A stretch of 63,913 nucleotides of DNA, the filler included, from Folioceros fuciformis (lineage: Eukaryota): the NCBI GenBank assembly GCA_049999805.1. It is 16 parts of 16 records of this genome, joined end to end, with 100 filler letters (N's around TTAATTAATTAA, not from the genome) between each part and the next. Parts side by side here need not be neighbours in the genome. Positions count along the whole stretch, not along the records: positions 41,432 to 52,627 come from JBNGIO010006733.1; 15 more parts are not named here. One strand, given 5' to 3'. Shown one piece after another: positions 224-52,343 of this stretch. The stretch's first letter is position 1, and each line of letters begins with the position of its first letter. The position numbers were made by a program, and so were the translations under genes. A model generated the notes under the pieces. The model searched no databases. It was not told where the DNA came from and saw only the letters and a program-made list of their open reading frames with translations.

Positions 224-2587
224 ATGCTCGGTTTTTGATAGAGTCCATCCGCCCTCTATCGAGGAGCAACTTTTCTGTCTCTTGGACAGGAAGCAGATGG
301 ATTGTTTTCAACACCTTGTACAATAATCAATCAGATTAGAACCAAATGGATCCAGCATCTTCCCCTAGCAGTTGCGCTGGCTGCAAAAGCACGAACTGTA
401 TTAAAAATCTGCCACACGCTCAATTCTGTAGTCTAATCACTGCATTAAAGAAAGCCCTAAGCAGATTCGGAGAGATATCAGATGCTTTTCTTGCAGATGC
501 CGTCGTGCATTATTACAGCTAGCGTCTTGCATTATGTCGAGGAGAAGAGGTAGAAGGTTGGTTGCCAGAAACTGCTGACCCGTTTGTAGGCGCACCATGA
601 GAACCAGTTGCATCACAACATCGTAGATTGAACCAATTTTTCAGTTCGCACTGTAGAAACCAGTATCAGCAGTCATGCGCACCATTCCAGGGTCAGAACT
701 TACAACAAATTAGGCCTGATCTCCTGCACAGTCTANNNNNNNNNNNNNNNNNNNNNNNNNNNNNNNNNNNNNNNNNNNNNNNNNNNNNNNNNNNNNNNNN
801 NNNNNNNNNNNNNNNNNNNNNNNNNNNNNNNNNNNCAGAACTTACAACAAATTAGGCCTGATCTCCTGCACAGTCTATGCGCACTAAGCCGTGACATTGC
901 TCGAGCACAGTTAGTTTCTGTCCAAGAACAGCAAAAACTTGCACGTAACACTCACCCACTGTGTCGCAATTGCGTAGCCAAGCAGTCTATCATTCCATCC
1001 TCTACTGACCAGCTTCTTGCAAAGGTGCATGACCAAGTCAGGTTGCAATCCCAACGCATAAAAGAAACCAACATCAAATTAGACGCACTGTTTGCACAAG
1101 GTCAGTTGAACTCGCTGGCTGTACCTGCACACCCAAGAACCAACACGCAATGTGAGAGCACCGTTTTTGGAGCATCAGCACCTGTGCAATCAAGAAACAT
1201 GAAAGCCGCCGAGATTGAGTGCAAGGATCCAGAGGCGTGTGCCGCAAGGGCTGCTCGACCTTTTAAAAAAAAAAAACAATGGCTGTACATGTCACAAGGC
1301 GGGAGAGGCAATCGCGGCCGTCGCAGACCAAATCGTGGTGCCGGATCAAGTCAAGGGACTGGCCGAGGGCGAAGCGATACAAGTGAAGAATCAGGGTTTT
1401 ATCCCCTACCGGAAGATCCCTCTTCACTGTTTCAAACACCTGACCAGATAGCCTCTCCACAATCCAGTACATCTCCCCCTCCCTCTTACTTTGTACATTT
1501 AGCACAGCTAGCACACGCTGCACAGAGTGCACAGTCAACAAGCACCGAGCGACTAGCTCAAGCCACAAGGGCTGCACTAGCCGCGCACGTAGTGAACTCC
1601 ATGGCTGGGCAACCTATCACAAATAACACAACCGTCAATAATCTGAAAATAGATTTTAAGGAAAAAGATAGGTTCAACGGATCCCAATTTGACATTTGGG
1701 CTCTCCGGGTCCAAACAATCCTAAAAGAAAATGACCTGTGGGATGTGGTTACTGGCACCACTCCCAAACCAGCTGCCACAGCTCCTCGGGCAGAACGAGA
1801 TGAATGGGCGAAAATGGATGTCCGGGCTTTGGCAGTTATCCAGTCTGCACTGGATGGTTCAATGATGCATCACACTCAGGATGCTGAATCCACGAAGGAT
1901 GTTTGGGACTCCTTGTCCCAAAAGCTACAGAGTATCAAATGGTTCGTCCATGGCTAGTGCTACTCGAGCTTTTTACAATTGCAAGATGAAAGAGCATGAA
2001 TCTGTGGAGCAACATGTTCAAAAGTTTCGAATGCTATGTTCGAAGCTTACCCCCAGTGGCACAAGGACTACTGAGATGCAGGCAGCAATTGCACTCTTGT
2101 TGTCCCTACCTAAGAGCTACAGGACGTTCGTCAGTAATCACAGCTCAAACTTGAGGAATGTGGCGCAAGCCACACCAGCAGGCCAAGTACCTGCAGTAAC
2201 ATTATCATACCTTATTAGAGCACTTCTCGAGGAGGAGTCCACAAGGCATTCCAGCAGGGGCGTTTCATCCTCCAGAGGAGAGTCGTCCAACATAGCCCTC
2301 TTTTCAAATAAAGGTCCAAAACGGCAGCAACCTCGCCAGTCATGGCAACCACAGAGCAGTGGTACACATGCAAGCAACAAGCAACGTCTTGCCTCATCTC
2401 CAGCGAAGAAAAAGGGCGAGTGCAACTGGTGCCTTATACCTGGCCATTGGGAGTTCAAATGCCGAAAAAAGAAAGCAGGAGACCCACGGCGTACAGCTCC
2501 CCCTAAAACCAATGTGGTACAGAAACGACCCAACACCCTGTTAGCTGTGTACATGGTCTCTACCCCTCTGTACAGGCATGCATGGTA

Positions 2588-2687
2588 NNNNNNNNNNNNN
2601 NNNNNNNNNNNNNNNNNNNNNNNNNNNNNNNTTAATTAATTAANNNNNNNNNNNNNNNNNNNNNNNNNNNNNNNNNNNNNNNNNNNN
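2588..2687. other. Artificial contig spacer (44 N + TTAATTAATTAA + 44 N); first of 15
   Basis: The same spacer recurs at about 5534, 10978, 24318, 26813, 31482, 33687, 38188, 39423, 41332, 52628, 54567, 55768, 57625 and 58967; the 12-mer has stops in all six frames. Confidence 0.97.
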
Positions 2688-5121
2688 TTCACATTCACAA
2701 AATTCAGTGGTAGCAGTAGGCACACCTGTCCACAACCTGTACCAGCTGGATATCTCTTACAAGCTTGGCAAGCCCTCTGTCAACTTGACTCAAGAGCAAC
2801 AGGCAGAACGAGACACCATGCTCTGGCACTGCCGCCTTGGGCATGTCAACTTTGACAAACTCAAAACCATGGTGGCCAGCAATACTTTGTATCGTGAGAA
2901 GTTCATGATCAAATTTGCCGAGAAGCAATTCTCTGAAGCTTGCGTTTTTGGCAAGCACCACTGAGCTCCCTACAAGGACAAACATCCAACCCGAGCCAAC
3001 AAGCTTCTGGAGTTAGTGCACTCAGACCTCTGTGGCGCGATGTCTACAGCTTCTTTTGGAGGTGCACGATATATATTGTCATTCATCGATGACTAGAGCA
3101 GGTACATCGTAGTTTACCTAATACGGGAGAAGAGTCAAACCTTTGACTATTTTCAGGATTACATTGCATTTGCCCAACGCCAAACTGGTGAGCTGATCAA
3201 GACCTTGCGGAGTGATAACGGTGGAGAATACTGCTCCAATGCCTTCAAAGAATTCTGCCAGAACCAGGGCATTGCTAGGCAGTATACTACCCCCCACACC
3301 TCTGCACAAAATCCAGTCACTGAGGTGAGTAACAGACACATCCAGGAACAAGCAAAAGCCATGCTGCATCAAGCATGCTTGTCAAAAGAATATTGGGGAG
3401 AGGCAGTTGCAACTGCTGCTTACATCCGTAACAGGCTCCCCACCAGTGTGTTTCCTGGAGCAACCCCATATGAACGATGGACCAATTCCAAGCCTCGTAT
3501 CAACCATCTTCGGCTATTTGGCTCACCTGCGTATGCTCATTTATCCGAAGACCAGAGGGTAAAAATGGACTACAAGGCTCGGAAGTACGTGTTTGTCGGA
3601 TATACTGAGGGCATAAAAGGATATAAGTTACTTGATCCTGACAAAAGGACCACGACACACTCCAGGAGTGTTGTCTTGAACGAGCTTTTCCTGCTCACTG
3701 CCCAAAGCCAGCAGCCAGCTGCAGCCAACCAGGCTTCGTCCAACTCCGAATACGATGATGGTGATGACACGTCAACCTCAGTCCAGTTGCACAGCTCCTC
3801 ACACACAGATCCCTTTGCTGTTCAGGCACCTGTCGACATTACAGTTAGCATCTTCCCAGAAGATGAAACTGCAGACAGTGATGAGCACGAGGACGAGGGT
3901 GCACATGAGGATGCAACAGCTGAGAGCCAGCTGGACATACCTGAGCCAAGCATACCTGAAACTGCTGCAGCCCCTGAATTTGTTGTGCACCCTCGGCGTG
4001 GAACAAACCTTGGCACACGCAGACACACTTCTTCACCCTCTGAGTGGACTAATCCCCCACTAACCTACAGCACTTTTTTGGTGCAAGAAGACTCCAATCC
4101 AAACAGCTTAGTGGAACCACTGTCCTACAAAGAAGCCATCTCTGGCCCAGAAGCTGCTAAGTGGGAGGAGGCTATTGCATCAGAATATCAGTCCCTAATT
4201 GACAATGGTACGTGGGAGTTAGCTGACCTACCACATGGCAGGAAACCTGTTACCTGCGAATGGGTATTTAAAAAGAAGTTGGCAACAGATGGCAGTGTTG
4301 CACGCTTTAAGGCACGACTTGTTGCCAGAGGTTTCAGTTAGGTCAAAGGCCTGGATTACACGGAAACTTTCTCTCTGGTTGTAAGGGCCACATCCATTTG
4401 GGCACTGTCTGCCGTGGCAGCACAATATGACTATGTCATGGAGCACATGGACATCAAAACTGCTTTCCTCAACGGAACCCTGGAAGAAACCATATACATG
4501 TGTCAGCCTCAGGGGTTCATAGACAAAACATACCCTAACAAAGCATGCAGGCTGATAAAGACAATATATGGGGTGAAACAATCTTCCCGTGCCTGGTACA
4601 ACCGGATAGACACTTACTTGAAGAAGTTTGGATTTCTGCAATGTGAGGCAAATACAAATGTATACAAACTGGTGGAGCGAGATGGCATAGTATTTTTAGC
4701 ACTGTATGTCGACGACGCAATGCTCATCTCCAGCAATCCCAAGCTCAAAGCCAAGGTTAAGTCCATCCTTACCTTAGAGTTTTTGATGTCAGACTTAGGC
4801 AAATTAACTTGGTTCCTAGGTGTCGAAATCCAGCAGAACCTGGCAACACACAAAGTGTTCATTCACCAGGCACAATACGTTAGTCGAGTCCTGGCCAGGT
4901 TTAGGATGTCAGAATGCAAACCAGCCTCAACTCCTATGGCTGTTGGAGAAAAATTGAGTATGGATCAGTCTCCCAAAACCGAACTAGAACGGCAACAGAT
5001 GGAGAAGGTACCCTACCGTTCAGCAGTGTGCTCCTTGTTTTATTGCAGAAACTGGACTCGTCCAGATTTGTCCTATGCAGTGGGAGCTACTGCCCAGTTC
5101 CTGACCTACTATGGACCTGCG

Positions 5122-5349
5122 TAAACGAAATCAGCGAGACCAGATGTGCATCACTGAGTGCGACGGGAAGAGCAAGAAGAAAACATCGATTAAGGAATGA
5201 CGTTTCGTATCAGTGTGTGTGCATATGAGCAAGAGATGCATAACCGTTTCATAACCATAATAAATATAATAAATAATTAACCAATCTACGAACTAGGTTT
5301 AAAGCTAGTAAAGGCTGTTTAATGAACCGAAAATAATTATTCCTTAATA
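5122..5349 (-). mobile_element. 228-bp insertion, probable solo LTR with TA...TA termini and 5-bp target-site duplication
   Basis: CTGCG at 5117-5121 and 5350-5354; removing the insert and one copy restores ...YYGPA-HWTCVQRIMRYLKGT. The minus strand reads TATTAAGG...TTTCGTTTA. Confidence 0.75.
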
Positions 5350-36015: not shown

Positions 36016-38187
36016 TTAATGCCGATCCCTGCAGGAGCAAGCCCCATCCACAAATCGATGTACACGGTGTGCATCTCTCACAATTATCTCTCGATTCTCA
36101 AGTCGCGACATGATCTTCGTACTGCTGTGGCAGTCATTGCACATGCGAAGGTTTTTGGTGACCAACAAAGTTGTGCCATCTGGTGTATTCAACAGGCCAA
36201 AAGCCAACGCCAGTTTCTCCGCATGCCCACACAAAGCATCCACTTTCTCCTGGTCAGACAACGCCTTCAACACCAGATGGGTTTGTGGTACATGCCCTCC
36301 TTCCTCTTGCAACCTCATATTCAAGCTCTTCAGTTCTGAGGAGGAAATGTCAGACCTCTCTTCCCCAACTGTGAATTCATGCACCTTGGTATTCACTTCA
36401 ATGCACGCCTTTGCAGCCTTCTTTGTAGCACCTGATGACTTTCTCAGGCTTTCTATCCTGCCTACATCATCCCACCTGCCTGCACTTGCGTAGATATTTT
36501 CCAGCAGCACGTATGAGCTTGCATCCTTGGGTGCCACTTTTATCAGATGTTCAAAGCACCGACGCCCACGCTCTACATCACCAATGGTCTTGCATGCACT
36601 CAGCAGAGCGGTCCAACCTACTACATCGTTCGTAAATGACGTAGTTTGCAAGAATTGTTCAGCCTCATCCAGGTAGCCTGACCGCCCAAGAAGATCAACC
36701 ATGCAACTCTGGTGATAGTCAGTTGGCACAAGTCCATAGTCCTCGACCATCATCCTGAAGTACTGCCGGCCTTCATGCACCAGACCTGAATGACTGCAAG
36801 CCACAAGGAGACAAATGAACGTCGTCTCATCTGGCTGGACTCCTTGCTGCACCATGTCTTCAAAACACCAGATTGCCATGGCAGCTTTACTGTGTTCGGC
36901 ATAACCATTCAAAAGGGCATTCCACGTGGCCACGTCTCGTCTGGGCATACAGTCAAAGAATTTGCGAGCTTCTTCCAAACTCCCGCATCTGGCGTACATA
37001 TTCAGCAGACTGTTACCAATAATTGTATCACCTTCGAGACCACACTTGCGAATGTGTGAGTGAAGCTCCTTGCCTTGCTCAATCGCACCCACATTGGCAC
37101 ACGCTTGAAGGATGCAAACAAAAGTAACATCATCAGCTACTATGACACCACCGACTTGCATACTTGCATAGAGCGCAAGCGCTTCCCTCCCCCACCCCTG
37201 CTGGGCATATGCTGCAATCATGGCATTCCAGATCACCACATCTCCTCGAGGCACAGAGTCAAACACATCACGAGCGTCCTCCAAGCTCCCACAACTTGCA
37301 TACATGTGTACCAGTGAGCTTCCAATGAACGAATCACCTTCAAGGCCTCGGGCCCGAATCTGCGAGTGCAGGTGCTTGCCAGGCTGGAGAGCTCCAGCAC
37401 TTGCACAGGCCTGAAGAAGGCATACAAACGTAACACGGTTCGCTGGAGTGATGCCCTCCTGTTGCATATCTGCATACAGAGCGAGGGCTTCTTGCCCTCG
37501 CCCCTGCTGACCGTAGCCTGCAATCATGGCAGTCCATGTCACGACATCCCTCCTGGGCAAGCTGTCGAACACGTCACGAGCCTCGTCTAAGCAACCACAT
37601 TTTGCATACATGTCAATTAGGGAGCTGCCAATGAAGACGTCAGCCTCAAGCCCTTGGGCACGAATCTGGGAGTGAAGCTGCTTCCCCTCCTGCATTGCTC
37701 CCAAGCTCGCACATGCTTGAAGCAGGCACAGAAACGTGACTCGATCGCCTGGGGTGATGCCCTCACGTTGCATCCTAGCATACAGGGATAGGGCCTCTCC
37801 CGCAAGCCCCTGCTGAGAATACCCTGCGATCATGGCATTCCACGTGACCACATCTCTCTCAGGCAAACCGTCAAACACTCTCCGAGCATCATCCAAGCTG
37901 CCGCACTTGGCATACATATTCACCAAGCTATTACCAACAAACACATCGGCCTCCACAGAACTCTCCCTGACATCAGCATGCACCTCCTTCCCCAGACCCA
38001 AGTCCCCAGCATCCGCACACGCCTTGAGAGCTGCCACAAAAATCCTGCAATCTGGCTCAACACCCGCCTCCCGCATCCGTCTGTACAAGCGGACCCCCTC
38101 CCAGGGCTCTCCATGCCGGGCATGCGCCAGAATGATGGAAGCCCACATTTGCACGCTGGGGGTCCCCACTTCTCTGAACGCCAGCAC
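36016..38187 (-). CDS. PLS-class PPR protein with E1/E2 and DYW:KP-type (DRH) deaminase-like domain; 5'-truncated, intronless
   Basis: Four P1-L1-S1 triplets plus P2-L2-S2-E1-E2; KKAAKACIEV in place of the PG box; HAEKLALAFG...CNDCH; ends CSCRDRH. Confidence 0.95.
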   Translation of the reverse strand: MLAFREVGTPSVQMWASIILAHARHGEPWEGVRLYRRMREAGVEPDCRIFVAALKACADAGDLGLGKEVHADVRESSVEADVFVGNSLVNMYAKCGSLDDARRVFDGLPERDVVTWNAMIAGYSQQGLAGEALSLYARMQREGITPGDRVTFLCLLQACASLGAMQEGKQLHSQIRAQGLEADVFIGSSLIDMYAKCGCLDEARDVFDSLPRRDVVTWTAMIAGYGQQGRGQEALALYADMQQEGITPANRVTFVCLLQACASAGALQPGKHLHSQIRARGLEGDSFIGSSLVHMYASCGSLEDARDVFDSVPRGDVVIWNAMIAAYAQQGWGREALALYASMQVGGVIVADDVTFVCILQACANVGAIEQGKELHSHIRKCGLEGDTIIGNSLLNMYARCGSLEEARKFFDCMPRRDVATWNALLNGYAEHSKAAMAIWCFEDMVQQGVQPDETTFICLLVACSHSGLVHEGRQYFRMMVEDYGLVPTDYHQSCMVDLLGRSGYLDEAEQFLQTTSFTNDVVGWTALLSACKTIGDVERGRRCFEHLIKVAPKDASSYVLLENIYASAGRWDDVGRIESLRKSSGATKKAAKACIEVNTKVHEFTVGEERSDISSSELKSLNMRLQEEGGHVPQTHLVLKALSDQEKVDALCGHAEKLALAFGLLNTPDGTTLLVTKNLRMCNDCHSSTKIMSRLENREIIVRDAHRVHRFVDGACSCRDRH

Positions 38188-38287
38188 NNNNNNNNNNNNN
38201 NNNNNNNNNNNNNNNNNNNNNNNNNNNNNNNTTAATTAATTAANNNNNNNNNNNNNNNNNNNNNNNNNNNNNNNNNNNNNNNNNNNN

Positions 38288-39422
38288 AGAGGGGTCTAGA
38301 TCTGTACTTTCATCCTTATCATACACATGTGGGTCAAAATCGTCCATGACAGATGCACAAGTTCTGGAATAAGTGTTCAGACTCTTCCGTGGTGACAAAA
38401 GCTCATCAAAGGTAATACTACGAGCTAACACCACTTTCCTGGTTGCTGGCTCGTATAGCTTATACGCCTTAGACACCTCAGAGTAACCAAGAAACAATAA
38501 GGGCCTCGCCCTATCATCAAGCTTACGTCGTTTCTGTTTAAGTATGTACGCATAGGCTATGGATCCAAATACTCGCAAGTGAGGAAGACTCAGAATCTTC
38601 TTCCAAAAGGCTTCGTGAGGAGTTTTACCAGGTATGCTAGTTGTCAACACTCTATTCAGTATATAAGCAGCTGTTGTAAGGGCCTCTACCCAATAGTGTT
38701 TAGGCAGTCCTGCCCATCCTAGCATACTTCTTGTCATGCCCATTAATGTCTGATTCTTACGCTCGGCTACCCCGTTCTATTGTTGTGTATAAGGAATCGA
38801 GAGTTGTCTCATAATTCCATGTGCTTCAAACAGCTCATCATACTGGAGTCCAACAAACTCACCTCTGTTGTCAGTGCAAAAGCACTTCACCAGGTTTCCA
38901 GTCTGTCTTTGTACCATAGCAATCCAGTTCTCGACACATTCAAAGGCATCACTCTTGAGGCGAGGTGTGTATACCCAAGCGTAATGTGAATACTCTGCCC
39001 CTCCTAGTGACTTAACTTGCAGTTTGCCTGCAATATCAGCATGGACAAGTTCTAACACTGCATTTGCCCTCTGTGCCTGTTTATTTTTGAAGGGAAGTTC
39101 CTTCTGCTTCGACATAACACAAGACTGACAAACAGGGAGATGCTTAAAATAGGAGGGAAGTTTTTCCCTAAAGCAATCTAAGGAAGCCATCAGATTCAGC
39201 TTCTCTTTGTTAACATGTCCAAGCCTTGCATGTCTAAACCCTAAACCCTTGCATGCCACAAGTTTGCTTCAGATACGGTGGAGGTAACATATGCTTTTGG
39301 TTCAGCAGAATTATGTAGCTAGTACAACTCGTTAACTAGTTGTCCTCTAGCTATGCACCTACCAGGTCTGGAGAGATCATAGAGACAACAATGACCTTGC
39401 TCAAACGTAAAGCCATATTTAC
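38288..39422 (-). mobile_element. Ty1/copia fragment (GAG-pre-integrase and integrase), degenerate
   Basis: HARLGHVN, CQSC, LELVHADIAG, TDNRGEF, PYTQQ*NGVAER (stop), WVEALTTAAYILNR, LRVFGS, FLGY. Confidence 0.92.
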
Positions 39423-42764: not shown

Positions 42765-45058
<2,294 letters not shown>

Positions 45059-45662: not shown

Positions 45663-47905
45663 CTAGGACAGATTGATATCGTGCATGACAACTCCATTCC
45701 GAAGACCCTGGATATAGCCCCATCTACCAAGCCGTGGCTCCTGTTGCAGGAAACCGACGCTCCGTGAGATAAGTTCCTTGGGGAGCAAGGAATGCAAGAA
45801 CTGAAAATGGGAGGTGCATACCTGGCCAACTCCAGCAAGCAGGAAGCGGCCACTGTGCGCGAACTTCAGAGAGTTGACGAACCCTTTCTGCTTGACAAAG
45901 TCATTTCGGTGAGGATATGGTGTCACATCACAGGACCCACAGTGGATGAGGCTGAGAGCTGATACTTACAACGGGGAGACCGTGCAGTCGTCGAATACTC
46001 TTGTTCCCGTCTTCCAAAGCCCAGAGTTGTACTATCCCATCACCTGCGCCTGATGCAACCAGGTCGCTTCCGCGGCAAACAGCAACCGCACCCACCCACT
46101 GTGCCGCAGCTCCCTGGGGAGCTGGTGGGGTTTGTGAATGTAATGGCTCGCCGTCGCTTGCATCTGATCAGCATTGCCACATTAGTAACTTGGAAGAGTT
46201 GAAGTTGGCTGTGACCCGTGGACCGGCGACCGTAAGGTACGCTTACATGTTTGCCCGTTCGCAGAGCCATTTGCCATCGCCTTCGAGGATGCTGCAATGA
46301 GAGGTTTCTCGGAGCCGTCTAACTCTGCAGAACTGTGATCGGCAGGCCCAGCACTGCCATGTGCATTGCGCACAATGAATGCAGGCTTCTTCCGCAACGC
46401 ACTCCACAGAGCAATAGAGCCATCATCGGACCCTGACAAGAATTCCCCATTTGACAGGAAGCAACAACTTTCCATTGAAGGACCATGACCTCTGAAGACA
46501 AGCTGCGTCTCTTCTGGAACCTGCAAAGATTTCAACATCCATCTTAGCCAGCAACTCATGACAAAGGATAGTCGACCAGAACGACTGTATAACGACTATG
46601 TGTTCACGGCAGTCTGTAGAAGTGTTAACTTGCCCCCTCCAAACTGAACACCGGAAAACGGGTGCTCCTCACCTTCCACAGTCGTAAAGTTCGATCCCGA
46701 CCTGCAGAAAACACCCTCTCCTGAAGAAGGCAATCTATCGACACAACTTCACTTTGATGTCCATACAGAGTGTCTATATAAGCCCTGTCGTCCACACTCC
46801 ACAACTTAATAGTCCTATCAAACGCCCCCGATATCAATTGTTGTGTCCCCAGTCTGAAGGCCAAACTAGACACAGCTCCTTTATGACCAGGGAAGGCCTG
46901 CGAAGTCCCAACAACACCTCCAAATCAAGCTCTGCCCATAGACACCACACTCCCCTAAGATGCACCCTTAACCTCACCAGCCAAGTAAGCTGCAGAACAA
47001 ACCCACTTACTACCTGAATATGCTCTCGAGTTCTGGTGTCCCAAACGTGTACGGTACGATCGAGACCACCGGAGGCCAGATACCTTCCATCCGAGCTAAC
47101 AGCTATAGTCAACACATGTCGACTGCTACCCTTCTTCCTTCCTTGATTTCCATGAGACTGTGCCCCAGAATTTTTCCCTGAAGTTGAAGCTTCACCACTA
47201 GGCCACTCATACTTCTCACTCTTCCCCGACTCTACATCCCAATGAACAATGAGGCCGTCCTTCGACGCCGAAAAACCCCTAGAATCATCTTCTGTCAACG
47301 CCACTGCCGTAACTGTCCGTCTATGCCGCCGACCGACATACCTTCCCTCCCCTGTTTCCGAAGGTTCCACAACCCTAGATTCAGAAATGCCAACAGCAAA
47401 CAAGCAGCACAGCACTCAGTGCTCGCATCAACTTATACAAAATTTCGATGAATCTAGCCCCAACGCAGCCAATCAACTAGCTGTACCTGGCAGCTATCTT
47501 CCGCTGCACTCGGCCGCTCTCCTCCAGCTGCTGCTGCTTCAGCAAGTCAGCTACTAGGGAGTCCCTATTCCCTGCATTGCTTTTCTCCCTGTCAGCTTCA
47601 TCCCCGCCGTCCTCAGCAGCCGCAGCTACAGCCTGCCGCACCTTGTCCAAATAAACCGAGGCCAATCTCAATTTCTTCTCCTCTGCAGTCTCTTCCCTCT
47701 CCTTCGCTCGCTGCTCCTCCTCCTCATCGTCTTGAACTTCATCATCCCCCCGCTCACTCCCCTCCTCATGATCGCTAGCCAGCTCCTCGTCTCCATTTTG
47801 CTGGAAAAATTCATCTTTCCGCTGCCCGCCTGAGGACGATCCTCTTCGCTTCTTCCGCTTGGAAATGTCCTGCGTCCACTCTTTTCTCTTTCTCGCCTTC
47901 GCCAT
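45663..47905 (-). CDS. RRP9: U3 snoRNP-associated WD40 protein U3-55K/RRP9 (YAO-like), multi-exon
   Basis: Acidic N-terminus, ETAEEKKLRLA, WD repeats (GFSASKDG, YLASGGLDRTVHVWD, LWKVPEETQLVFRG), VGQEPRLGRW. Confidence 0.93.
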
Positions 47906-48349
47906 GGCCACAGCCTCAGGAACTAAGCAGACCTCACCAGGCCAAGGTTTTGGGTTTAACAATAGGGCATTGGTAGGATACACATGTAGAACTGTTAAAA
48001 GGCCTCAAATAGTACGTAACAGCTACATTCCCATTAGTCATTAGTAATTAACTAAGCTTAACTGAATCAGGTCACAAAAGGCATGCGTAGATAGATAACA
48101 GTGTGAATGTCATGGGCAATTTCACATTTCCAGCTTGGGGCCTCCCATGCGGACCGTGATGGGAGGAACCCATTCTTCCACGATCTGTGACGACTCTGAG
48201 AGTCGTTGCGAGTCTCATCTGCAATGTTTCAAGCAGTTCCCCCCTGGCTGTGGACTGAAATAGTTTTTGGAATTGAAATTCCAGGACTCATGGCTGTGTT
48301 CAGCAACCTCAAGGCTTTGTCTCTGTAACTGCGTGAAGGGAGATCCAGT

Positions 48350-51215
48350 ATGTGGCCTCTGAGCAAGCCATCTCTGGCACCACATTTGCCCACTTCTGCC
48401 CACTGTTTCAGCAAGGTGCACCGGAAGATGAGGACTTGTATCCAATCAGAAGCCAGGAGTTCAGCGTGCAAGCATGTGGATGTCTCTGTCCTCCGATCCT
48501 CGTCTAGACATGAACGCGTTGGCCTTCTCAGACGGTTGAGGATGGTGGGGATTACCTCTTCAGTCACTGGAAGAGAGTCGTTGCTGTACATCGATGTCAA
48601 AGCACATGGCATACCTCTGCTGGACAGTTATATTTTAGCTGAGCTTGTTCCTCCTATGATTCTCGGAGTTGCTGCAGCTACTGCATTGGGGATTTTCATG
48701 GGTAAGATAACGCCTGTTCATGTACAGGTGTGGCGGTCTGAATGAAATGACTGGTTTACAGATGGTATCCTGGGATGTGGTATCAGGTGCGGGGCCTGAA
48801 CTTGGCACGTTGGTGGGAGGTTATGGAGTTTCATGGCCAAGCGTGCTGCTTGCTGTGCGGTTTTTCGTTTTGCGAGTTCCTGTGAGTGTTGGGAAAAACT
48901 TTGTTTAGCCGTTGGAGAGCGCCTGGACAGCTTGGTAACTGTGGCTGGTTTGGTTGCAGGTGTACGTTGGATTTGCCCTTCCGATCGCATCTCTGCTAGC
49001 CCCATTGCTTGCCTTTGGACGCATGGAGGCAGACAATGAGATTTTAGGTGGAGCCAGCCTTCAACTTCCTTGCTTAGTCCTGCCGCATTTCGGGTCGGCG
49101 AGAATCTCATCTTACGTGTCCATGGGACTATTGTTTTACGGGCATGCACGACCAAAAATGCAGCTCTCAGATCCTTTGGAGTGACGGCCTGCAGACTGGT
49201 TCGGCCAGTGCTTGTGATGTTTGCTGGAGTTACCATTTTTCATCTCTTCCTCACCGAGGTGCTAGTTTTGTGGTTCATCGGGGATAGAGTTGATTGGCAA
49301 GTCACTGAACCGCGTATCTGAAAGAAGCGGCAGTGCATGTTCGCAGGGTGTGATTCCTAAAGCAAACAGATACGCACGACATTTGAAATCAGAATCTACT
49401 GAGGTCTACGTCCAGGGAAAGGACGCATCTCAGGTATGTTCAGACTTGAGATGCCATGTTGGAGTAGCTAAGTAAACTATCTGCGATGACAGTGTAGGCC
49501 GAAGTGAGGATTTGTGATCAATGTTCCTTGGCAGAGCCGCTTATAGTTTTGTCCAATGTCCACAGGTGAAGTTGAAGATACCTCCACAACCAATTATCTA
49601 CTTGAATTACAGGTATCCCAACGGGGATGGCATAGACTCTGCGCTCTTCTTGAACAACAACAGTCCTTTATCTATGCCTTATTTTTTGTGTTGAGTATAT
49701 GAGCTTATGCAGTTCGTTAGAAGCTGTGGCTCGTATGGCTGCAGGAAGGGCAGCCTGTGGCACTTGTTCTATGCACATAGGCTTGCTGGTGGGCTGTTGC
49801 TGAAGGCAACTCTTGTGGAAATGCAGGTACTGCCCCTGCTGCAGGCATTGTGTTGTGTTGTATATGACACGCTTCATGACCAAAGTTTGAGTGGATGTCG
49901 TTTCTGTATGGCTGAAACAAAAAAAAGCTGTCTGAATGCTTTCTAACAAGTGGAATTATCAGGCGGAAGATTGTCCAAGCGTCTCCTCATTGCCTTCCAA
50001 ATCTTGCGACTGCAAATCAGGTTGGCTTGATTCGTCTTTTAAATTTCTGTTGCGAATGCTCAGAAAGACATTGTTGGCAAAGCTGGAATCAACTATTTTG
50101 CTCAGTGCAAACTGTCTGATTTACAGGCATCAGATTACGTAGAGTGGTGGTCGCCGAGTCCTCGACGTGGGATGCAAGTAGGAATGCCTGGATGTTTAAG
50201 AATGGTGCAGAATATGATATTCGATGGGGTGGCCGTATTAAAGGGATAACTGAGTCAGGTGCACCTTTCAAAGATGACATGCCTGCCTCGCACTCTCTAC
50301 CTACTCCGGCCACATACACTCTGCAGTCTGTGTGCCAGTTCGACCTAAGATGTGAGTCAGACACTGAAAGTTCTCCTGTCCCAGTGCATTCGTACAATTC
50401 CCTTCTGCTCATCGTACTTCTTTACTTCGAATTGCAGACTTCCAGGGACTGACGTCGGCACCTTTGGAACTTGCCAAACTACAGAATGGACGAAATTTTG
50501 ATGACATGACCTTCGAAGAGGTGGGTCCACGGGTATTTCTGGTTTCTTTGAACGGTCGGTCAAAAAATGCTCATTTCACAATTTGGAAGTCGTGCAAATT
50601 GCAGGTGATCAAATTGCAGCAGCTACTGGATGCAAGTAGGAACTTCAGTGAAAGTAGAAAGCTGAAGGTTCGAGACAAACGCGTGTTACTTCTTGTTGAC
50701 TGCAATGAGATGTGATAGTGAGATATCAATTCATACATACAAGTAAGAAGTGTTTGGCGCAGGTGAAGCTTCATCAGAGGATGGCCCTTCCCTTCTCTTG
50801 CCTAGTGTTTGGAGTGGTTGGATCTCTGATCAGCCTGAGCTTACCACGGAAGCTGCACGTGGTGCTTCCCAGAATCGCTTACCCCTTGGGTGCAACGCAC
50901 TTTTTCCTGAGGCAGACCAAAAGCAATCTCTTGCCCTCTCACCCCCATTATTCTGTTGGGGTGCAGGCCGGATTTGTGTGGATGCTTGCTATAGTCTTCA
51001 CTTACTATGTTGTGAATGTTTGGGGATCCCTTCTCGGTCAGGTATGCTTTTTGCAGTTCTAATTCTTGGAGAACCTTTGTATCTTGCTTGACTGGTGTTA
51101 CATCAAGGCTATCGTTCTGCAGTTAAATCTGGTCAACCCATTCATCGGAGCTTGGATGCCCAACTTAGGAGGACTTCTTGCAATTCTGATTCTGCTCCAG
51201 AAGGCACAGACCTAA
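48350..51215 (+). CDS. LptF/LptG (YjgP/YjgQ, Ycf84-like) permease with putative plastid transit peptide; 14 exons, about 481 aa
   Basis: Phase-consistent GT-AG model: 48350-48701, 48787-48881, 48960-49047, 49164-49258, 49347-49433, 49566-49612, 49745-49826, 49963-50020, 50127-50258, 50438-50520, 50605-50667, 50763-50858, 50967-51041, 51123-51215. Motifs LDSYILAELVPP, ALPIASLLAPLLAFGRMEADNEILALRSFGV...RLVRP, LFYA, AESSTWD...AWMFKNG, KLHQRMALPFSCLVFGVVG, PFIGAWMPN. Confidence 0.87.
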
Positions 51216-51258
51216 TCAACTGGAACAACTGCTCAGCCGGGCAAGGCCACTGTTCCTC

Positions 51259-52343
51259 CTAAAGCAGCACCCTAGGATCCTTGACAGCAATTTCGACATG
51301 CATTTTCCTGATTTCCGAGATGGCCCTCCCAGGGTTCAAGCGCTTGGGACAAGCATGAGAACAATTCATGATGGTGTGGCAACGGTAAAGCTTGCCACCC
51401 TTCATCAAAGCCAGAGCCCGCTCCTTGCCGTAGTCGTCCCGCCTGCGTGAACGTGTTCCACAAAACCAAATGTGAGACGTCAAAGTGAGTACAAACCGAC
51501 AAATCTCTGTCTTGCTGGAGGGAAACATACGAATCACCACCGTCTTGCATGCAAAAGCGCACCGGGCCCAAGAAACTGTCAGCCTTCCACCAGTACGAGG
51601 GACAGGCACTGCTACAACAAGCGCACAAGATACACTCGTACATTCCATTCAGCTTCCTTCCTCCTTCCCTTCCGAGACTGGCGGTACTCTCGTCCTTCCG
51701 GAGGACGTCGCTTGGACTTCAACCACGACTCCACTGTCCTGCAACACACATCCGGTGAGAACCACTCCAACCCATCCACACACAAATGTTCTCCTTAGCC
51801 ATCCGAACACCTCACTTGTACTGGTTGTAGAAGTTGGTGAGATCCACCGCCAGATCCTTGACCACGAACATGTGGGACAACGGGGTGATGGTCGTCACCG
51901 CTTTGGGGTCAGGATCCACGGGACAGAGGCAAGCAATGGTGGTCGTGCCATTGATATTCACGGAACACGAACCATACACACCCTCCCGACATGACCGGTA
52001 CACGAGAGTCGAGTCCTGCTCGCCCTTGATCTTCTGCAGCACATCCAGCACGTGGCAAACCCAAGACCCACAACCTCCACTATCAGCAACAAAAATCCTC
52101 CTTCCTGCCACCCAAATCCCACCACACCTCTCACATACCATGGGCCTGCAGTCATCGAAATCCACCTTGTAAGACTGCATGTAAGACCTGCCTCATCTCC
52201 GGATTCCACCGATAGACCTGAAACTCCTTCACGCTCCCACCAGATTTGTGACCACTCTGAAGTCCAGAAGAGACAGCGAAGGCCCTCCACAGGCCCTTGC
52301 AGAAGACCATCTCCAGCGCCCTGCTCCCCAACTTGCAAGCCAT
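51259..52343 (-). pseudogene. SDH2: Succinate dehydrogenase iron-sulfur subunit (SDH2) pseudogene retaining introns
   Basis: [57 protein letters not shown]...CPK; frameshifts near 52195 and 51660; consensus RRSCREGICGSC reads YRSCREGVYGSC. Confidence 0.85.

Follow-up and report, generated by a model that had tools for sequence, protein, structure and literature searches.

A transcribed nuclear gene of Folioceros fuciformis for an LptF/LptG-family permease of cyanobacterial type

The gene, its splicing and its neighbours

The stretch of DNA that was analysed (the window; 63,913 nucleotides, filler included) comes from the Folioceros fuciformis assembly GCA_049999805.1. Its plus strand carries a gene at positions 48350-51215 that is divided into 14 exons by 13 introns of 78-179 nt, all of which begin with GT and end with AG. 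The exon phases are consistent, and the frame of 1542 nt is free of in-frame stops over all 14 exons and encodes 513 amino acids. An in-frame stop (48326-48328) lies directly upstream of the ATG, and the stop-to-stop open reading frame begins at 48329.

The splicing pattern was compared with assembled contigs of two public runs. The first (X1) is from the same organism, with contigs at least 99% alike to the window, and the second (X2) is from a relative at 90-95%; for both, the run type is given as "RNA?", which is a tool's guess. Two further runs, X3 and X4, contributed no contigs here. A continuous X1 contig (48142 to 48700) places the 5′ UTR, at its minimum extent, at 48142-48349. Among the joints listed, at least 12 of the 13 introns are removed as GT..AG joints in X1 contigs, and six of these 12 joints also occur in X2. 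A seventh skip in X2 has equal length but is shifted by 6 nt (49436 to 49569). Intron 2 is absent among the joints listed, which leave out three. An X1 contig extends 88 letters past 48881, which is the length of exon 3. In X2, nine letters hang loose after 48883 at the end of a contig, and all but one of them agree with the first letters of exon 3. X1 also contains pieces, at lower depth, in which introns 3, 11 and 13 are retained.

Exon 1 (48350-48701) contains the start codon, a leader of about 88 amino acids (48350-48613) and the first transmembrane helix (TM1); both runs join its end to the next exon (48701/48787). Exon 2 (48787-48881) has GT-AG borders and is covered by an X1 contig (48786-48881). 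TM2 and the start of the coupling helix, including Glu176 (49038-49040), are encoded by exon 3 (48960-49047), which is joined at 49047/49164 to exon 4 (49164-49258), where the remainder of the coupling helix and TM3 follow. The soluble, beta-jellyroll domain begins in exon 5 (49347-49433), connected on both sides by X1 joints (49258/49347 and 49433/49566). X1 joints also delimit exons 6 (49566-49612), 7 (49745-49826) and 8 (49963-50020), the last of which accounts, by alignment, for most of a stretch at aa 285-302 that is discussed below.

Exon 9 (50127-50351) is the longest internal exon and holds both conserved jellyroll core and a fast-changing region at about aa 334-366, within which lies aa 340-357, a further stretch taken up below. 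Joints in the run contigs support exons 10 (50438-50520), 11 (50605-50667) and 12 (50763-50861), and exon 12 encodes TM4. The borders of exon 12 also match those of a single-exon open reading frame of a relative (P0007). Exon 13 (50967-51041; TM5) is supported by an X1 joint (50861/50967) and by a fragment, P0006; the intron upstream of it is in frame and stop-free. Exon 14 (51123-51215) encodes TM6 and the TAA stop (51213-51215), and its joint to exon 13 (51041/51123) is found in X1 and X2.

An earlier note on this DNA had proposed 14 GT-AG exons with consistent phases and a stop-free frame, and the spliced model and the run contigs bear this out. The protein length of about 481 amino acids given there was 32 too short. 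It corresponds to a shorter exon 9 with a donor at 50258 (a 482-aa model), which is ruled out: both runs join 50351 to 50438, and no joint at 50258 is among those listed for their contigs. Because of the joint at 50351, exon 9 is 93 nt longer and the protein has 513 amino acids. In this plant, the nuclear gene at this locus is expressed from 14 exons, and its product is an LptF/LptG-family permease of 513 amino acids.

On the same contig, Pfam matches on the minus strand mark a Tubulin domain (43955-44494) and WD40 repeats (46185-47415) on one side of the gene, and an SDHB-type Fer2_3 domain (51815-52192) on the other. For the first two, the gamma-tubulin and RRP9 named in the note are putative identities. 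Further matches in the window include a PPR+E+DYW protein (36019-38178, minus strand), a plant U-box ARM protein, a P450 and a copia-type element.

Family membership and protein architecture

Four of ten exon stretches match the LptF/LptG profile PF03739 in colinear order: exon 3 (22.8 bits, profile positions 55-81), exon 4 (18.0 bits, 84-114), exon 12 (18.7 bits, 270-298) and exon 14 (12.7 bits, 329-352). Each single match is below the Pfam cut-off of 27.9 bits. Against a small LptF/G profile that we built from five relatives, the full spliced product reaches 339.2 bits (E 1.6e-105, aa 90-511), and two of its eukaryotic relatives, P0003 and P0001, exceed the Pfam cut-off with 152.6 and 137 bits. 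The identification as an LptF/LptG permease, already made from the unannotated sequence, is therefore upheld by the profile comparison. In an ESM Atlas search with P0003, the nearest clusters were all bacterial LptF_LptG.

The fold was assessed with P0003 as a proxy. In its AF2 model (pLDDT 81.3, pTM 0.75), long strands form a block between flanking helices. With this model as query, Foldseek gave 21 PDB matches at E<=1e-3; 12 of the 14 listed are named LptB2FG(C) entries, and the best is 6mit_G (E 1.1e-13, target-normalised TM 0.75). The arrangement of three plus three helices around a jellyroll is thus seen for the window protein by hydropathy, and for the fold through the model of P0003. 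The hydrophobic segments of the window protein lie at about aa 94-118, 143-171, 188-210, 431-454, 456-482 and 489-509, and a soluble stretch of about 220 amino acids (aa 211-430) separates the two helix triplets.

Glu176 shares an alignment column with E84 of E. coli LptF and E88 of E. coli LptG, which we take to be the coupling-helix glutamate that contacts the ATPase LptB. All seven aligned sequences have a glutamate here, and the position is at least 90% conserved in a larger alignment (A2, 76 sequences). Across the alignment, the window protein and the E. coli proteins have this glutamate and the conserved transmembrane core in common, and the jellyroll core can still be aligned with the cyanobacterial proteins.

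Not all of the soluble domain is shared in this way. Residues 285-302 and 340-357 are without counterpart in the two aligned cyanobacterial sequences; P0001 and P0003, like the window protein, have residues at 285-302 and 340-357.

The leader (aa 1-88) is without counterpart in the aligned bacterial sequences. Its first 85 residues include 14 serines, 10 arginines, 15 basic residues (K/R) and 5 acidic ones (D/E), and it contains an Arg/Leu-rich stretch. The Ser/Arg-rich leader of about 85 residues and the order of three helices, soluble domain and three helices had been noted before; both hold, with a leader of about 88 residues. Exon 1 as a protein query returned 797 candidates, none of which was a significant match.

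Divergence between the window and X2 is fastest in the leader region, with 40 differing letters in 324 bases (48187-48510, which partly includes the 5′ UTR). An in-frame gap of 36 nt (48511-48546) also lies in the leader. Among the changed codons listed, 17 of 22 are non-synonymous, mostly at aa 334-366 and in the C-terminal tail, and exon 9 contributes 12 non-synonymous changes among its 15; beyond these codons there are 74 further rows of differences. Judged from these codons, the protein shows at least one region that appears weakly constrained.

A pseudogene that is still transcribed, or a relic on which selection has relaxed, might also accumulate such a share of non-synonymous changes, and the unspliced pieces over introns 3, 11 and 13 in X1 would fit a decaying gene. 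However, the 1542-nt frame is open over 14 exons, the 36-nt gap in the leader is the sole length change seen in the coding part of X2, and exon 2 has only 2 differing letters among 98. Moreover, the differences listed, which are part of a larger number, are concentrated in one loop and the tail. We consider decay very unlikely.

Cyanobacterial ancestry and distribution

Three phylogenetic analyses place the eukaryotic sequences with Cyanobacteriota. The three eukaryotic rows (the window protein, P0001 and P0003) form one clade with support of 100. This clade groups with 19 Cyanobacteriota rows in a FastTree analysis of 177 rows (support 98), with 19 in a quick IQ-TREE analysis of 101 rows (99), and with 15 in a careful IQ-TREE analysis of 80 rows (100/100), whose bootstrap was not fully settled (correlation 0.987). 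A branch with support 100/99 places the eukaryotic and cyanobacterial group on the side of E. coli LptG and separates it from E. coli LptF. Sampling in these trees is uneven: Pseudomonadota are represented by two E. coli rows on long branches, the rows include no alphaproteobacteria or chlamydiae, and in the cyanobacterial sister clade an organism name is attached to a single row.

Database searches agree with the trees. The top named relative of P0003 is a cyanobacterial permease with an E-value of 6e-37, against 2e-18 for the next match, and in a search of a genome collection the corresponding values are 2e-41 and 6e-20. PF03739 matches occur in all 61 Cyanobacteriota genomes, with exactly one match in 20 of them. 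Among the genomes from which the sister clade stems, 13 of 14 have a single match, and for this reason a pair of F and G proteins is not expected. The Coleofasciculus gene has an LptD_N/LptA-like gene, an ABC ATPase and a HAD hydrolase as its neighbours in one row.

These results trace the window protein to a single-copy, LptG-side permease of cyanobacteria, to which an N-terminal leader of about 88 amino acids has been added. They bear out the "cyanobacterial-type" assignment of the earlier note, which had left open whether the gene is endosymbiont-derived or was acquired horizontally. Endosymbiont descent fits the sequence data better than a recent horizontal transfer, because a zygnematophyte alga, a lycophyte and another eukaryote have relatives and because the three sequences in the trees are one clade.

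Contamination of the assembly with bacterial DNA, or a transfer in the very recent past, might be suspected in view of the fact that the family is otherwise bacterial, as are all the nearest ESM Atlas clusters. However, the gene has 13 spliceosomal-type GT-AG introns that are spliced out in contigs of two runs, and plant-type genes flank it on both sides within one contig. In addition, its identity to the nearest named cyanobacterial protein is only 33%, and it forms a clade with other eukaryotic sequences. We regard this explanation as practically dismissed, as the note had also argued with regard to contamination.

The searches say little about how widely the gene occurs. A HMMER search of 1.84 billion representatives with a 93-aa query (exon 12, the in-frame intron and exon 13) gave seven matches at E<=1e-3, but the query is too short for this search to be informative on absence from seed plants. 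One of the seven, P0004, is unrelated. Homologue searches with P0003 and with a eukaryote-only alignment gave 11 and 10 matches, with no further plant proteins among them; they also missed the known relatives P0001 and P0005, and are therefore uninformative on distribution.

In the full-text literature searched, we found no description of a plant LptF/G or of a plant Lpt inner-membrane component, and the name ycf84 did not occur. One apparent mention of LptG in connection with plastids proved to be a misspelt LTPG20. Our verdict is that the gene encodes an uncharacterised eukaryotic member of the known LptF/LptG family.

Possible function and relation to known systems

Plastid envelopes derive from the envelope of a diderm cell, and the way in which lipids cross between the two envelope membranes is only partly understood. 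We are inclined, with some reservation, to regard the window protein as a plastid inner-envelope half-transporter of LptG type and cyanobacterial descent, which passes a lipid or glycolipid towards the outer envelope. In the proposed mechanism, the leader would import the protein into the plastid, with the inner envelope as its predicted location. The six helices would form the membrane half of an ABC transporter, probably as a homodimer, because the cyanobacterial sister clade stems from genomes with one such gene. On the stromal side, an LptB-like ATPase would dock at the conserved coupling-helix glutamate. Facing the intermembrane space, the beta-jellyroll domain would take up a lipid or glycolipid that has been drawn out of the inner envelope's outer leaflet. 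It would then pass this molecule towards the outer envelope, the site of LptD-like barrels (TGD4 and LPTD1, known in Arabidopsis).

A bolder proposal is that a functional Lpt-like route across the plastid envelope persists in streptophyte algae and in land plants without seeds. Its core would be a homodimer of the LptG-type permease in the inner envelope, driven by an LptB-like ATPase. A jellyroll bridge would connect this core to LptD-like barrels of the TGD4/LPTD1 family, and the cargo brought to the outer envelope would be a glycolipid, lipid A-like or other. We hold this to be unlikely as a whole. Seed-free plants and streptophyte algae are said to keep a plastid peptidoglycan layer, and a route of this kind was perhaps retained along with it.

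The basis for the ancestral function is family membership and gene neighbourhood. According to passages of PMC7133116, homology has identified none of the lipopolysaccharide transport proteins even of Synechocystis, except a possible LptB.

The LptF/G fold may instead have been kept while the role in an Lpt-type bridge was lost, leaving an orphan or re-purposed permease that works with another ATPase, on another organellar lipid or outside transport altogether. No Lpt inner-membrane component of plants turned up in the full-text literature searched. Parts of the soluble domain are lacking in the two aligned cyanobacterial sequences, and one part of this domain changes fast (12 of 15 changed codons in exon 9, among those listed, are non-synonymous). 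On the other hand, conservation between E. coli and the window protein extends to the coupling-helix glutamate and the transmembrane core, the conserved jellyroll core aligns with cyanobacterial proteins, and two related organisms both splice the gene into an intact frame. Re-purposing is a possibility that we rate as rather low, although real.

The location also bears discussion. The leader is Ser/Arg-rich with an Arg/Leu stretch, and its composition could equally be that of a mitochondrial presequence. The permease would then be at the mitochondrial inner membrane, together with a lipid A-like (Lpx) pathway. Excerpts from PMC3355754, citing Li et al. 2011, assign Arabidopsis homologues of lpxA, B, C, D, K and kdtA to a mitochondrial lipid pathway, and the basic character of the leader (15 K/R to 5 D/E in 85 amino acids) is consistent with this location. 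Yet the trees give the gene a cyanobacterial ancestry, whereas passages of PMC3087551 argue that the plant lpx genes are not cyanobacterial and come from other bacteria. To the extent that these sources show a mitochondrial and non-cyanobacterial lpx pathway, the permease and this pathway therefore need not meet. Moreover, lipid A-affinity staining was reported in green algae and pea chloroplasts (Armstrong et al. 2006, as cited in the same passages of PMC3087551). We consider a mitochondrial permease improbable, and continue with the plastid inner-envelope reading.

If that reading is true, this LptF/G-type permease, whose nuclear gene is expressed and derives from cyanobacteria, would supply the inner-membrane end that is missing from an Lpt-type route in at least some green lineages. 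The gene hints that some plants may keep part of the lipopolysaccharide-export machine in an organelle. It makes testable whether plastids or mitochondria extract a lipid A-like or other glycolipid, which ATPase and bridge proteins take part, and whether the system was lost in seed plants. Even as an orphan, the permease would be a clean example of a bacterial envelope transporter retained for other work.

The LptB2FG(C) complexes of Gammaproteobacteria (e.g. 6mit, 6mhu) share with the window protein PF03739, the glutamate in the E84/E88 column and, by window hydropathy and the P0003 model, the architecture of 3+3 helices and a jellyroll. The window protein is on the LptG side of the F/G split, with 20% identity to E. 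coli LptG and 15% to LptF. Unlike the gammaproteobacterial genes, the window gene is eukaryotic and nuclear with 13 introns, and its product has a leader of about 88 amino acids and a soluble domain of about 220 amino acids with extra stretches.

The nearest named bacterial relative is the permease of Coleofasciculus sp. (P0008, L001:2959-4122), which is 33% identical over 374 columns and belongs to the sister clade (100/100). It has 387 amino acids and lacks the leader and the residues corresponding to aa 234-244, 285-302 and 340-357. Its gene is in a row with LptA-like, ABC-ATPase and HAD genes. As far as PMC7133116 shows, the cyanobacterial LptF/G system has itself not been described experimentally.

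The eukaryotic homologues, named here as in their sources, are 37-46% identical to the window protein, and none carries a functional name. The zygnematophyte EukProt entry jgi/Mesen1 ME000376S06495 (P0001, which is without its N-terminus) and the transcript-derived P0003 are in the same clade as the window protein. Three "hypothetical proteins" of the lycophyte Diphasiastrum complanatum (KAJ7527500.1, KAJ7528056.1 and KAJ7528058.1) are further homologues; these models are partial (136-266 amino acids) and were left out of the trees.

Plastid lipid transport in Arabidopsis is known to include an Mla-like TGD system, and two LptD-like barrels are on record there. Passages of PMC12096540 and bioRxiv 10.64898/2026.07.15.738633 present TGD1/2/3, TGD4 and LPTD1 as bacterial envelope lipid-transport parts, including LptD-like barrels, that persist in plastid envelopes; their passages describe no link to an LptF/G-type permease. 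The TGD and LPTD1 proteins belong to other families than the window permease, and the TGD system, as studied in Arabidopsis, moves ER-derived lipid into the plastid. These proteins could form the outer-envelope end of a route into which the window permease feeds.

Gene structure and nuclear setting

Positions 48350-51215 (plus strand) hold what our analysis shows to be a spliced nuclear gene for an LptF/LptG-family permease of the LptG side, of cyanobacterial descent and with an added leader. We built its model by three-frame reading, with borders set by coordinates. As the earlier note described, it has 14 exons, and each of the 13 introns (78-179 nt) runs from GT to AG, with phases that agree and no in-frame stop. 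Our first model ended exon 9 at 50258 and gave 482 aa, close to the ~481 aa claimed in that note. Contigs from two public sequencing runs, X1 (same organism) and X2 (a relative), both join 50351 to 50438. This donor at 50258 was therefore rejected, exon 9 is 93 nt longer and the protein, called the window protein here, has 513 aa. With this one border corrected, the observation is confirmed.

Of the words sampled from the stretch, 57% occur in run X1, and all 10 of its contig pieces aligned to the window are at least 99% alike; X2 is mostly 90-95% alike. Both are typed "RNA?", which is the tool's guess, and their contigs report joins, expression level, transcript ends and strand being beyond such data. 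Twelve of the 13 predicted exon joins appear as GT..AG skips in X1 contigs, and X2 contigs have six of these twelve, plus one same-length skip shifted by 6 nt. Among the joints listed for X1 and X2 contigs, none crosses intron 2. At this intron, X1 record 1 extends 88 letters past 48881, precisely as many as exon 3 has, and a loose X2 end beyond 48883 agrees with the first letters of exon 3 at all but one position. The start ATG at 48350 is preceded by an in-frame stop (48326-48328) within an X1 contig that begins at 48142. The 5′ UTR covered by an X1 contig (48160-48330) also has ATGs near 48160, 48225 and 48291; each is out of frame with the start codon and might begin a short upstream ORF.

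Unspliced X1 contigs at 49018-49191, 50640-50790 and 51012-51149 span introns 3, 11 and 13 at a depth of 4-4.7, versus 9-17 for spliced contigs; they could stem from pre-mRNA, carried-over DNA or retained introns. Retention of the intron that separates exons 12 and 13 (50862-50966) would add 35 aa, as it is in frame and free of stops.

Plant nuclear genes flank the permease gene on both sides, and bacterial contamination, also dismissed in the earlier note, is therefore excluded. Neighbors in the window are genes for a PPR-E-DYW protein, a tubulin, a WD40 protein, an SDHB-type iron-sulfur subunit, a plant U-box ARM protein and P450s (more than one), together with a copia-type element. Lying on the minus strand, the SDHB-type gene is convergent with the permease gene (51120-51648). 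One X1 contig (51120-51503) connects the last permease exon, by way of the 3′ region, with the terminal SDHB exon (ORF 51259-51648, minus strand); the two genes may have overlapping 3′ ends, or two transcripts may have been merged in this contig. The PPR ORF (36016-38235, minus strand) is intronless, its 5′ end is truncated by one of several runs of N that break the window, and its 739 aa include an E motif and a DYW deaminase domain (PF01535, PF20431, PF14432). PPR proteins of this composition are of the organellar RNA editing type in land plants. The copia-type retroelement pieces (632-5124, plus strand, and 38240-39268, minus strand) comprise gag-like, integrase core, SH3-like and RVT_2 domains; on the minus strand, beside the PPR gene, is a second integrase-like fragment.

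Membership in the LptF/LptG family

Sequence, architecture and coupling residue place the window protein in the LptF/LptG family, an identity that is well supported and that the earlier note had proposed. In a Pfam scan run per exon stretch, four of the ten stretches matched LptF_LptG (PF03739) in colinear order, each alone below the cut-off of 27.9 bits: exon 3 (22.8 bits, profile positions 55-81), exon 4 (18.0 bits, 84-114), exon 12 (18.7 bits, 270-298) and exon 14 (12.7 bits, 329-352). Against a profile of five relatives, the spliced protein scored 339.2 bits (E 1.6e-105, aa 90-511). Two eukaryotic relatives also match PF03739: P0003 (502 aa) end to end with 152.6 bits, and P0001 (438 aa), from a zygnematophyte alga, with 137 bits.

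The expected arrangement of three transmembrane helices, a soluble domain and three further helices is borne out by hydropathy, which places segments at about 94-118, 143-171, 188-210, 431-454, 456-482 and 489-509, with a soluble stretch, aa 211-430, between the third and the fourth. An AlphaFold2 model of P0003 (76-sequence alignment, pLDDT 81.3, pTM 0.75) has a block of long strands flanked by helices. Foldseek gave 21 PDB matches to this model at E<=1e-3, the best being 6mit_G (E 1.1e-13); 12 of the 14 matches listed are LptB2FG(C) entries by name, with LptG chains first. Identity to E. coli LptF is 15%, and to LptG 20%. Glu176 shares a column with LptF E84 and LptG E88, a glutamate that we take to couple the permease to LptB, and all seven aligned sequences have E there.

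Relatives and cyanobacterial descent

Homologs are already in public databases, where they are nameless (P0003, P0006, P0007) or "hypothetical". Their distribution across plants is sampled here by one sensitive search (word-based searches overlooked even known relatives): a HMMER search of 1.84 billion representatives with a 93-aa query (exon 12, the in-frame intron and exon 13) gave seven matches at E<=1e-3, including P0003 and P0001 (source name jgi/Mesen1 ME000376S06495). P0002, P0005 and P0018 are partial proteins from the lycophyte Diphasiastrum complanatum, labelled "hypothetical" at the source. P0006 and P0007 come from a closer relative; both are single-exon ORFs, and their ends coincide with the exon 12 and exon 13 borders. 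Full-text literature searches yielded no described plant or algal LptF/G, and the papers covered do not contain the word "ycf84", the earlier note's name for a homolog encoded in red-algal plastids.

A cyanobacterial origin, as the earlier note's term "cyanobacterial-type" implied, is well supported. The top named relative of P0003 is a Coleofasciculus "LptF/LptG family permease" (E 6e-37; next match 2e-18). Against one genome per prokaryote species the best value was 2e-41 and the next 6e-20, in a list that is biased because the scan relied on one narrow peptide pattern. We made three trees from profile matches covering >300 profile positions, taken from every fetched locus and excluding the partial Diphasiastrum proteins: FastTree on all 177 rows; IQ-TREE (LG+C20+F+G4) on 101 rows, with Acidobacteriota randomly thinned from 75 to 8 and Thermodesulfobacteriota from 15 to 6; and a careful IQ-TREE on 80 rows, without 22 near-duplicates and with E. 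coli LptG. In all three, the window protein, P0001 and P0003 form one clade (support 100), whose sister group consists of 19, 19 and 15 Cyanobacteriota rows, respectively, with support of 98, 99 and 100/100, values that are rough because the bootstrap correlation was 0.987. Coleofasciculus falls in this sister clade; of the 14 genomes that contribute rows to the clade, 13 have one PF03739 match each. E. coli LptG, all Cyanobacteriota rows and the eukaryotes fall on one side of a 100/99 branch, with E. coli LptF and the "first" genes or domains of other phyla on the other, the E. coli rows being long branches.

PF03739 was found in all 61 genomes sampled from the cyanobacterium's GTDB phylum, with exactly one match in 20. 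Copy number varies with genome type: it is one in most genomes of 4.7-8.4 Mb, two in those of ~1.6-2.2 Mb and 3-5 in a third set. The sister to the plant clade includes the one-copy type only, plus both copies from one further genome (G024). Upstream of the Coleofasciculus permease gene are genes for an LptD_N/LptA-like protein, an ABC ATPase and a HAD hydrolase. At this locus (L001:540-2738), the HAD-family hydrolase gene sits between the ATPase and the permease.

The leader and a possible plastid Lpt system

The N-terminal leader, put at ~85 aa in the earlier note, comprises ~88 aa with no counterpart among the bacterial sequences of our alignment. As a targeting signal, this basic leader is ambiguous from its sequence. 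The soluble-domain stretches aa 234-244, 285-302 and 340-357 are missing in the alignment's two cyanobacterial sequences; the latter two are occupied by residues in the other eukaryotic sequences as well. Divergence between the window and X2 is highest in the leader region, with differences at 40 of 324 letters in the 5′ UTR and leader start, 8 of 154 at the end of exon 1 and 2 of 98 in exon 2. Within the leader, the X2 relative lacks 36 nt (12 codons, in frame) at 48511-48546. Among the 22 changed codons listed for X2 against the window, there are 17 non-synonymous ones, which cluster in aa 334-366 and in the C-terminal tail; 74 further difference rows lie outside that listing.

It may reasonably be inferred that the window protein belongs to a plastid Lpt system. 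The protein would be imported into the plastid, would insert in the inner envelope and, because the ancestral lineage has one gene, would act as a homodimer. Its conserved coupling helix could dock an LptB-like ATPase, and its jellyroll would hand a lipid or glycolipid on towards the outer envelope. The bolder reading, that streptophyte algae and seed-free plants retained a trans-envelope Lpt route, is, in our estimate, unlikely.

Enzymes of the lipid A type in Arabidopsis are described as mitochondrial (PMC3355754) and plant lpx genes as non-cyanobacterial (PMC3087551), both of which weigh against the plastid reading. Lipid A staining in green algae and pea chloroplasts is cited in PMC3087551, and for Synechocystis, cyanobacterial LPS transport is itself described as unresolved (PMC7133116). 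In the bacterial bridge model, as outlined in PMC8667587, the jellyrolls of LptF, LptC, LptA and LptD stand in line and LptB hydrolyses ATP. Plastids have LptD-like barrels, given as TGD4 and LPTD1 (PMC12096540; bioRxiv 10.64898/2026.07.15.738633). We regard the window protein as a new eukaryotic, uncharacterised member of the LptF/LptG family.
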